A stretch of 64,000 nucleotides of DNA from IMG/VR virus record IMGVR_UViG_3300046542_000259; one strand, written 5' to 3'. Origin of the DNA: a virus (Duplodnaviria; Heunggongvirae; Uroviricota; Caudoviricetes). The notes beneath the pieces were generated by a model that saw only the letters and a program-made list of their open reading frames with translations, was not told the DNA's origin and ran no database searches. Below are positions 58,233 through 61,556 of this stretch, piece by piece (position 1 is the first letter of the stretch; each line of letters begins with the position of its first letter). Position numbers and translations under genes: made by a program.

Positions 58233-58318
58233 TGGTGCGGGCGAGAGGAGTCGAACCTCCATGCCTTGCGGCGCTGGAACCTAAATCCAGTGCGTATGAC
58301 CTATTTCGCCACGCCCGC
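58233..58318 (-). tRNA. tRNA-Leu(UAG)
   Basis: Cloverleaf, CUGGA-UU UAG GU-UCCAG, long variable arm, GGUUCGACUCC, encoded CCA. Confidence 0.93.
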
Positions 58319-58331
58319 AATTCCTTAAATA

Positions 58332-58407
58332 TGGTGCTCGTTGATGGAATCGAACCACCGATTAACTGACATGTAAAATCAGTGCCTTACCACTTGGCGA
58401 AACGAGC
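58332..58407 (-). tRNA. tRNA-Val(UAC)
   Basis: CUGAU-UU UAC AU-GUCAG, GGUUCGAUUCC, A73, encoded CCA. Confidence 0.85.
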
Positions 58408-58415
58408 TTTTATTT

Positions 58416-58489
58416 TGGACCAAACTCTAGGTAACTCTCCTAGTTAACTGATTCCACAGATCAGTGCATTAATTTTATGCTAAGCTTGG
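58416..58489 (-). tRNA. Non-canonical tRNA-His(GUG) or tRNA-like RNA
   Basis: 7-bp acceptor CCAAGCU/AGUUUGG, U73, CCA; 4-bp D stem; CUGAU-CU GUG GA-AUCAG; 5-bp T stem; D loop AAAAUUA and T loop AGAGUUA lack consensus. Confidence 0.7.
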
Positions 58490-59385
58490 ATTTTATTTTC
58501 TTCTCTTTTTATATCTTCATCAAACCATACAACTAAATTAATTCCTTGAGCTTTAGCGGCGTCCCATTTCAATTGATCGTTTTCACGCTTAAAGCCTTTA
58601 GTTTCAATATAGTATACAGTATCATCATTATTTTCAACTTTGAAATCTAGAAGATATGTCGCATCTTTCCCATTAACTTTGACATAAGGTATTCTATCTC
58701 TAGTATAATCCCATGATTTAATTAAGTTATTGTCTAACCAATTATCAAGGATAGCACAAGTCCTTAATTCATAAGTACCTTGAACTCGGTGATTTTTATA
58801 GGTGTACCACTTTGTTCTCCCGCCTAGAGGCAACTTGGTTCCGTCTCTATATTGCTGGGCAACAAAATTACTAATATATGTAGAAAAATTCCCATAATTT
58901 TCTGCGTTCTTTTTATGCATTTTCCTTATGTTAATTTTTCCAGCGCATTTTATCGAGCAATATATCTTCCTATTTTGGGCTTTATTATTTTTACTAACTG
59001 TGAATGTATTTCCGCAATAACAGGTCTTCTGTATTTCAATCTTTTTAGTTTTATTTAAAAGTGTAGTAGAAATTTTCTTATTCTTAGAGGCTTTAAAATC
59101 TTCGGATTTCTCTCTTTCCGCATTATTAAAACTTGCGGCATGTGAGGAATTACAAAATTTATTGTGTCTCTTCTCATACGGAAGGATAGAAAAACAAAAT
59201 AAGCACTTAGAGGGATTTAATCCATAATTAGTAGTATTATCTTTTATAATCTTTAAATTATCTTGTATCCTCCTTTCTTTATATTCTTCCATCAAAACTT
59301 TGTCATGAACTTTTTTATGTCCATTTAATGCTTGACTAGTTTTAAATTCTTTATTACAGATTTCGCACTCATAAATTTTATTCAT
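58480..59385 (-). mobile_element. Free-standing homing endonuclease-like gene: C2H2 and Cys-rich zinc fingers plus TnsA-like PD-(D/E)xK domain
   Basis: CEICNKEFKTSQALNGHKKVH; C..C/FC..SH and C.C/YCS..C knuckles; QG.YE, YLLDFKV, YYIETKG; AT-rich, inserted within tRNA array. Confidence 0.75.
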
Positions 59386-59408
59386 AATATTTTCTTGTTT
59401 TTATATAA

Positions 59409-59484
59409 TGGTTCTCAAGGCTGGCTACGATCCAACAACCTCTCGGGCCAAAACCGAGTGCTCTACCAATTGAGCTACTTGAGA
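59409..59484 (-). tRNA. tRNA-Gln(UUG), atypical T loop
   Basis: U1-A72, CUCGG-UU UUG GC-CCGAG, T loop AUCGUAG, encoded CCA. Confidence 0.82.
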
Positions 59485-59495
59485 TTATAATTTTT

Positions 59496-59582
59496 TGGTG
59501 GGTGTGGAAGGAATCGAACCTACTCACTCATAGAGAACGGATTTACAGTCCGCTGCACACTCTCCTACTTGGCCGCACACCC
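59496..59582 (-). tRNA. tRNA-Tyr(GUA)
   Basis: GCGGA-CU GUA AA-UCCGU, extended variable region, GGUUCGAUUCC, CCA. Confidence 0.9.
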
Positions 59583-59987: not shown

Positions 59988-60077
59988 TGGCTGGATCGGT
60001 TGGGGTCGAACCAACGTCTAACTCTCGTTAGAGACTCGGATTAACAATCCGGCACCTTACCACTCGGTCACGATCCA
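59988..60077 (-). tRNA. tRNA-Asn(GUU) with long (20-nt) variable arm
   Basis: UGGAUCG/CGAUCCA, G73, UU GUU AA loop, GGUUCGACCCC, CCA; 90 nt. Confidence 0.85.
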
Positions 60078-60752: not shown

Positions 60753-60827
60753 TGGAGACGAGAGTGAGATTCAAACTCACACTTGAGGGATTTGCAGTCC
60801 CTTGCATAATCCTTCTGCCTTCTCGTC
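60753..60827 (-). tRNA. tRNA-Cys(GCA)
   Basis: AGGGA-CU GCA AA-UCCCU, U73, T loop UUUGAAU, CCA. Confidence 0.88.
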
Positions 60828-61464: not shown

Positions 61465-61556
61465 TGGAAGAGGGCGGGCAGTATCGAACTCCAATCGTAT
61501 CACTACGATCCGCCAGTTTTCAAGACTGGGCCTATCACCTGACAGGATCACCCTCC
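61465..61556 (-). tRNA. tRNA-Ser(UGA) with 8/4 acceptor/T geometry and Sec-like D arm
   Basis: 8-bp acceptor GGAGGGUG/CGCCCUCU, 6-bp D stem with 4-nt loop, CU UGA AA, 7-bp variable stem, 4-bp bulged T stem, CCA. Confidence 0.8.

Follow-up and report, generated by a model that had tools for sequence, protein, structure and literature searches.

A phage tRNA-His gene with a D/T elbow probably rebuilt from matched loop substitutions

Introduction

By standard teaching, almost every tRNA has G18, G19, U54, U55, C56, and A58. The canonical elbow is held by the pairs G19:C56 and U54:A58 and by a contact of G18 with U55; the flat 19:56 pair is recognized by RNase P and the L1 stalk, chiefly through stacking (PMC4810234). 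The D-loop GG and T-Psi-C are missing from tRNA-Pyl and from type II mitochondrial tRNAs, and contacts between positions 16 and 59 are known in tRNA-Sec (PMC7609411). In T-box riboswitches AGAGA is a known T-loop consensus beside UGxRA (PMC7583486). With regard to histidine tRNAs, species without G-1 and with A73 or U73 have been described in alphaproteobacterial phages (PMC5389517), and the measured identity set of Caulobacter HisRS consists of A73, U72, and the anticodon (PMC9976931). CbCash is a nuclease whose target is a UUC motif in T loops; cleavage is lost on changing U54 or U55 singly and is weakened by adenine substitutions (PMC13462974).

Here we describe a tRNA-His(GUG) gene in a 64,000-nt stretch of phage DNA (IMG/VR record IMGVR_UViG_3300046542_000259, hereafter the window). 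Compared with the canonical bacterial and phage tRNA-His (RF00005), the cloverleaf, U8, A14, U33, GUG, G37, G53-C61, purine 57, and CCA are alike, but G18, G19, U54, U55, C56, and A58 are all replaced, with a Watson-Crick 19:56 pair still possible. The gene resembles tRNA-Pyl and type II mitochondrial tRNAs in what it lacks; the type II mitochondrial tRNAs, however, have no D/T interaction (PMC7609411), whereas the window gene has normal arm lengths and belongs to a class with strict D/T covariation (18/55, 19/56, and 16/59). As in the T-box T-loop motif (PMC7583486), the pentaloop is A-G-A-G-N with G in second place, but the fifth base is U and it would dock with the tRNA D loop instead of another T loop. 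The absence of G-1 is shared with alphaproteobacterial and phage tRNA-His, including the (8/4) forms (PMC5389517; PMC9976931), U73 occurs in some of the phage species, and the window cluster also contains a Sec-like (8/4)-type tRNA-Ser, as in the systems of PMC5389517. Unlike the tRNA-His of those two reports, the window gene is of the 7/5 type and has C1:G72 in place of U72/A73; a rewired elbow is not described there. A search of the literature outside subscription papers found no description of an AG-N-GU-W-A T-loop class.

Results

Phage setting and structure of the tRNA-His gene

The window belongs to a phage genome, with recognizable genes for a portal protein, major head protein, PhoH, DNA polymerase A, and ribonucleotide reductase. 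The best isolate matches of the portal protein are 37-46% identical and belong mostly to phages infecting Alphaproteobacteria. The best-matching sequencing runs are rhizosphere metagenomes, and the longest recorded contig measures 165 kb. A tRNA cluster runs on the minus strand from position 58233 to past the window end (Table 1). Promoter and terminator scans gave results at chance level.

Table 1. Positions of the tRNA-His gene, its parts, and neighboring features in the window
Feature	Position	Strand	Remarks
tRNA-His(GUG) gene, 74 nt	58416..58489	minus	U at -1, no G-1; C1:G72, C2:G71, U73, encoded CCA, 4-nt variable loop
D loop AAAAUUA	58470..58476	minus	A14 A15 A16 A18 U19 U20 A21; A16 at 58474, A18 at 58473, U19 at 58472
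T loop AGAGUUA	58432..58438	minus	A54 G55 A56 G57 U58 U59 A60; covariation points to contacts A54/U58, A18/G55, U19:A56, and A16:U59
Anticodon loop CUGUGGA	58453..58459	minus	GUG at 58457-58455
301-aa ORF	58480..59385	minus	Zinc fingers and C-terminal PD-(D/E)XK-like nuclease domain (predicted); stop codon coincides with tRNA-His nucleotides 8-10
tRNA-Val(UAC) and tRNA-Leu(UAG)	58233..58407	minus	Downstream of tRNA-His; canonical elbows; synteny markers
tRNA-Tyr and tRNA-Gln	59409..59582	minus	Upstream of tRNA-His; tRNA-Gln at 59409-59484, T loop AUCGUAG with the A54/U58 swap alone
tRNA-Asn(GUU)	59988-60077	minus	20-nt variable arm
tRNA-Cys	60753-60827	minus	A19:U56 swap only
tRNA-Ser(UGA)	61466-61556	minus	Sec-like

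A first-pass annotation of the sequence had reported a perfect 7/4/5/5 cloverleaf with GUG, CCA, and odd D and T loops. This was confirmed and placed on the minus strand: all 21 of 21 pairs are standard, the sole wobble being G5-U68, and U8, A14, U33, G37, G53-C61, purine 57, and U73 are present together with 7-nt anticodon and T loops. The canonical elbow set is absent, with A18 U19 in the place of G18 G19 and A54 G55 A56 U58 in that of U54 U55 C56 A58. The minimum free energy fold of the element is the cloverleaf, at a modest z-score of -2.0. When both strands of window positions 1-57000 were scanned without regard to loop sequence, no zero-mismatch cloverleaf having U33 and CCA was detected, nor did any occur in 10 shuffled versions of the window. 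Two contigs, one from JGI and one from Logan (L007 and L008), have identical letters, and an additional run covers the gene without differences; since independent assemblies carry the same letters, the loops are not an assembly error. An alternative 8/4 fold (8-bp acceptor and 4-bp T stem) was ruled out in favor of 7/5, in which all pairs are standard.

Five related phages were obtained via their portal proteins (72-80% identical). In four of them (L018, L020, L021, and L022) a canonical tRNA-His follows tRNA-Gln, and Val-Leu comes next in L020 and L021. C1:G72 and C2:G71 are common to the window tRNA-His and its counterparts in L018, L021, and L022, and U73 with a 4-nt variable loop to those in L018, L020, and L021. 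The stem sequences differ throughout yet pair, and none has G-1. We concluded from these sequence comparisons that the window gene and the canonical tRNA-His genes of the related phages are orthologues. All 17 nt of the anticodon arm recur unchanged in L004, in a canonical phage tRNA-His. Origin by duplication of the adjacent tRNA-Val, which has a similar anticodon stem, was ruled out, since the anticodon arm equals that of the L004 tRNA-His and the acceptor ends agree with those of the His orthologues. No relative of the element or its region turned up among INPHARED phages by BLASTN, a portal-peptide scan of IMG/VR gave no match, and an exact T-arm search in metagenomes returned nine matches, none of them within a tRNA. 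In sequencing run X3 a contig joint (depth 5.4, 31 letters on the short side) bypasses the His-nuclease-Gln-Tyr block, window 58412 to 59579, which hints weakly at a co-occurring strain with this block missing or replaced.

Covariation in the rewired elbow

In pattern searches of IMG/VR part of the T loop was held fixed, D-loop positions 16, 18, and 19 were left free, and cloverleaves with at most one stem mismatch were kept for the covariation counts. The pattern matches included ∼95 distinct tRNAs of many anticodons with an AG-type T loop. We define the rewired-elbow class by the T loop AG(C/A/U)GU(U/A)A, that is, A54-G55-U58. Among 282 unique viral tRNAs with a 7-nt D loop, G55 occurred with A18 in 87 of 89 cases and U55 with G18 in 188 of 190; the viral class members with such a D loop had A18 without exception (62/62). 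At 19:56 the class contained 57 G-C, 6 U-A, and 1 A-U combinations (p = 1.5e-8, ignoring relatedness; n = 64 viral tRNAs with a 7-nt D loop), and at 16:59 there were 46 A-U, 14 U-A, and 2 U-U combinations (p = 4e-12, ignoring relatedness; n = 64 viral tRNAs). No complementarity was seen at neighboring loop positions, and the 16:59 rule was not found in canonical tRNAs. Five anticodon types include both states of 16:59, and five contain G-C as well as a swapped pair at 19:56; the presence of both states within several anticodon types argues that the class pattern is not one inherited event. Exceptions were a tRNA-Gln (L200) with G19 and A56, the two class members with U16/U59, and a group with similar loops and broken stems (L232).

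The window tRNA-His obeys all four rules, with A18, U19:A56, A54/U58, and A16:U59. Both of its loops recur letter for letter in a tRNA-His with C73 on an unrelated 161-kb viral contig (L237), on which the pattern found no second tRNA-His. The U19:A56 subtype was also seen in another tRNA-His (L235) and in Cys, Gly, and Lys tRNAs, on viral contigs only. The three elbow modules also occur singly: the window tRNA-Gln has only A54/U58, and the window tRNA-Cys keeps G18 and has A19 with U56. Such single-module intermediates suggest a stepwise path to the full swap. The first-pass annotation had taken the elbow to be gone, as in mitochondrial tRNAs. That did not hold: for every consensus base lost there is a matching change in its partner, and the loop changes covary across tens of phage and bacterial tRNAs. 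Judged by these counts, the window elbow is recoded by matched substitutions and not lost; the A54/U58 and A18/G55 contacts are proposed from covariation, which does not give their geometry.

Further T-loop classes were observed at many loci (for example L020:521-596), namely G54-G55-G58 and U54-G55-A58 with A18, and A54-U55-U58 with G18.

Occurrence in cellular genomes

In a scan of GTDB the AGCGUUA type was detected in Verrucomicrobia, where it lies mostly in tRNA arrays, and in CPR genomes as a stand-alone tRNA-His with G-1 and C73. The CPR genes are of the G19:C56 subtype, unlike the U19:A56 of the window gene. Across 96 genomes of one CPR order (incomplete MAGs), an AGCGUUA tRNA-His was detected in 14, a canonical one in 54, and both in none (Fisher p = 2e-6); both types were present together in one CPR genome from outside the order. 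Because a cell requires a tRNA-His and the two types do not overlap in this order, the simplest reading is that the AGCGUUA gene replaced the canonical one there. It is very likely, on these genome comparisons, that the rewired elbow design translates. The CPR genomes in which the AGCGUUA elbow is the only detected tRNA-His are L251, L255, L289, L346, and L371-L380, and annotation may miss these genes.

Detection by tRNA scanners

The suspicion of the first-pass annotation that standard scanners may miss the gene proved right for default ARAGORN and Rfam. ARAGORN missed the tRNA-His at its default threshold by ∼1% and picked it up at -ps99 and below; Rfam RF00005 gave no match to it at E ≤ 1, and the neighboring tRNAs scored 50-68 bits. 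Counts of tRNAs in phage and CPR genomes are thus too low where default scanners drop rewired-elbow genes, and some reported cases of missing tRNA-His could be of this kind.

Acceptor end and histidine identity

The common bacterial G-1/C73 pair is absent from the window tRNA-His, which has U-1 and U73. The lack of G-1 and the U73 fit the phage type (PMC5389517), but C1:G72 and U73 differ from the Caulobacter set, G72 being a departure from its U72 (PMC9976931); the Caulobacter set may not be that of the host. Since the acceptor fits the one and not the other, charging with histidine is plausible only. Among 151 alphaproteobacterial genomes, a small sample in which CCA-encoding genes with A73 or U73 were considered, no clear tRNA-His with C1:G72 and U73 was found.

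The overlapping nuclease ORF

The 301-aa protein encoded upstream contains a C2H2 finger, further Cys pairs, and the invariant residues D247 and E261-x-K263. Its structure model has a pLDDT of 85, and the top fold matches fall nearly all into the PD-(D/E)XK superfamily, although they are weak and none reaches E ≤ 0.001. No PHROG matched this zinc-finger PD-(D/E)XK-like nuclease family. Homologues (L391-L472) lie almost always near tRNA genes according to relaxed ARAGORN calls; among 25 close homologues, some of them redundant, 10 overlap the 5' end of the next tRNA and 5 more stop within 40 nt of it. The ORF probably encodes a free-standing homing endonuclease of tRNA clusters.

Discussion

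The comparisons above point with good probability to a working phage tRNA-His whose D/T elbow was rebuilt from alternative matched contacts. The D and T loops would still dock to give the L shape, with the flat U19:A56 face kept; host RNase P would cut the tRNA out of the cluster transcript; a G-1-independent HisRS of alphaproteobacterial type would charge it; and the charged tRNA would add to the histidine pool during infection, decoding CAC and CAU. Since the 19:56 pair is kept, RNase P and the L1 stalk should still act on this tRNA. Without U54 and U55 the usual T54/Psi55 modifications are impossible, so the window tRNA-His, which has neither base, cannot carry them, and readers of the U54/U55 sequence, such as T-loop uridine-modifying enzymes and Cash nucleases, should not act on it.

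An uncharged decoy or regulatory mimic, which would bind host tRNA-binding proteins and not decode, was an option raised in the first-pass annotation. The U-1, C1:G72, and U73 of the acceptor form no proven HisRS substrate set, and irregular tRNAs that are charged yet do not translate are known (PMC5389517). However, the canonical-elbow orthologues have the same acceptor signature, which is therefore not special to the window copy, and in 14 CPR genomes no tRNA-His other than one with this elbow design was found; we regard a decoy as very unlikely. The A+T-rich loops and the weak folding z-score could also be those of a decaying pseudogene or of a mitochondrial-type degenerate tRNA without D/T contact, the gene being known from one phage lineage only, where the weak X3 joint hints at a strain lacking or replacing the block. 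Decay is very unlikely, given that all 21 stem pairs are intact, that four tertiary contacts are changed in match, and that the same loops occur in an unrelated phage tRNA-His. The first-pass annotation was right in arguing against decay. It is highly improbable that the loops were altered to make the tRNA immune to the adjacent endonuclease, as self-protection of a homing site. The nuclease ORF does overlap the first 10 nt of the tRNA and its family is found almost always in tRNA clusters, but where close homologues overlap a tRNA (Asp, His, Gly, or Cys), that tRNA has a canonical UUCRA loop, so that nuclease overlap does not explain the elbow, and most class members were found without reference to the nuclease.

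As for the reason for the swap, the rewiring of a working tRNA might have been selected for escape from a host nuclease that reads T loops, for example a CRISPR-associated Schlafen (Cash), which would be an addition to the working-tRNA reading. The T loop of the window tRNA-His reads A54-G55-A56, and the anticodon loop contains no UC; as CbCash is blocked by changes of U54 or U55 (PMC13462974), the tRNA should resist it. The class is also found mostly in phages and tRNA arrays. Against escape, 11 of the 14 parsed tRNAs of the window phage keep UUC, and because Cash cuts most tRNAs, one resistant tRNA would not rescue translation. Moreover, related phages vary different tRNAs, the class makes up ∼2% of phage tRNAs sampled without bias (4/185), and it also serves as a CPR housekeeping tRNA. 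Escapes of the T5 tRNA-Lys/PARIS type reportedly involve changes in the anticodon arm. Such nuclease-resistant phage tRNAs (T5 tRNA-Lys versus PARIS, cited in PMC13462974) are alike as variants possibly escaping a host tRNase, but in the window tRNA the change lies in the elbow and resistance is a prediction. We consider selection by a nuclease conceivable but doubtful. The UUC-keeping tRNAs, the variation of other tRNAs in relatives, and the rarity of the class lead us to rank above it a mainly near-neutral exchange between equivalent elbows, toward which we lean slightly.

More tentatively, there may exist in translating tRNAs a second, fully alternative elbow code, made of A18/G55, A54/U58, a 16:59 pair, and any Watson-Crick 19:56 pair, by which phages would avoid the need for T54/Psi55 and resist Cash-like T-loop nucleases; the window gene, with no canonical elbow base left, would be its most extreme form. 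A natural covarying replacement set of this kind makes it possible to test directly which elbow features ribosomes, RNase P, and synthetases require. To such a test the window gene contributes the triple-swap subtype, the 16:59 rule, the evidence of replacement in CPR, and a named nuclease candidate. If resistance to T-loop nucleases is true, the variant would represent a new route of phage counter-defense and a useful scaffold for engineered tRNAs.

Other tRNAs in the phage group

Several other tRNAs of the group depart from the usual forms. The window tRNA-Ser(UGA) has a Sec-like long D stem with a tetraloop and an 8-bp acceptor; ARAGORN misses it, and Rfam scores it as tRNA-Sec at 50.4 bits. 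It fits the (8/4) tRNA-Ser of PMC5389517, and L021:7119-7199 looks similar. The variable arm of the window tRNA-Asn(GUU) is unusual for a class I tRNA, the relatives having 5 nt. A tRNA-Pro-like gene (L018:4730-4807) has an 8-nt anticodon loop (UUUG), which may reflect a four-base anticodon or an assembly error. One slot of the phage group is occupied by short type I tRNAs with a UCA anticodon (CUA in L021), located at L007:1785-1860 (just past the window end), L018:4810-4885, L022:4261-4335, and L021:2843-2917. These are possible opal or amber suppressors; the genes here appear to use table 11 stops.
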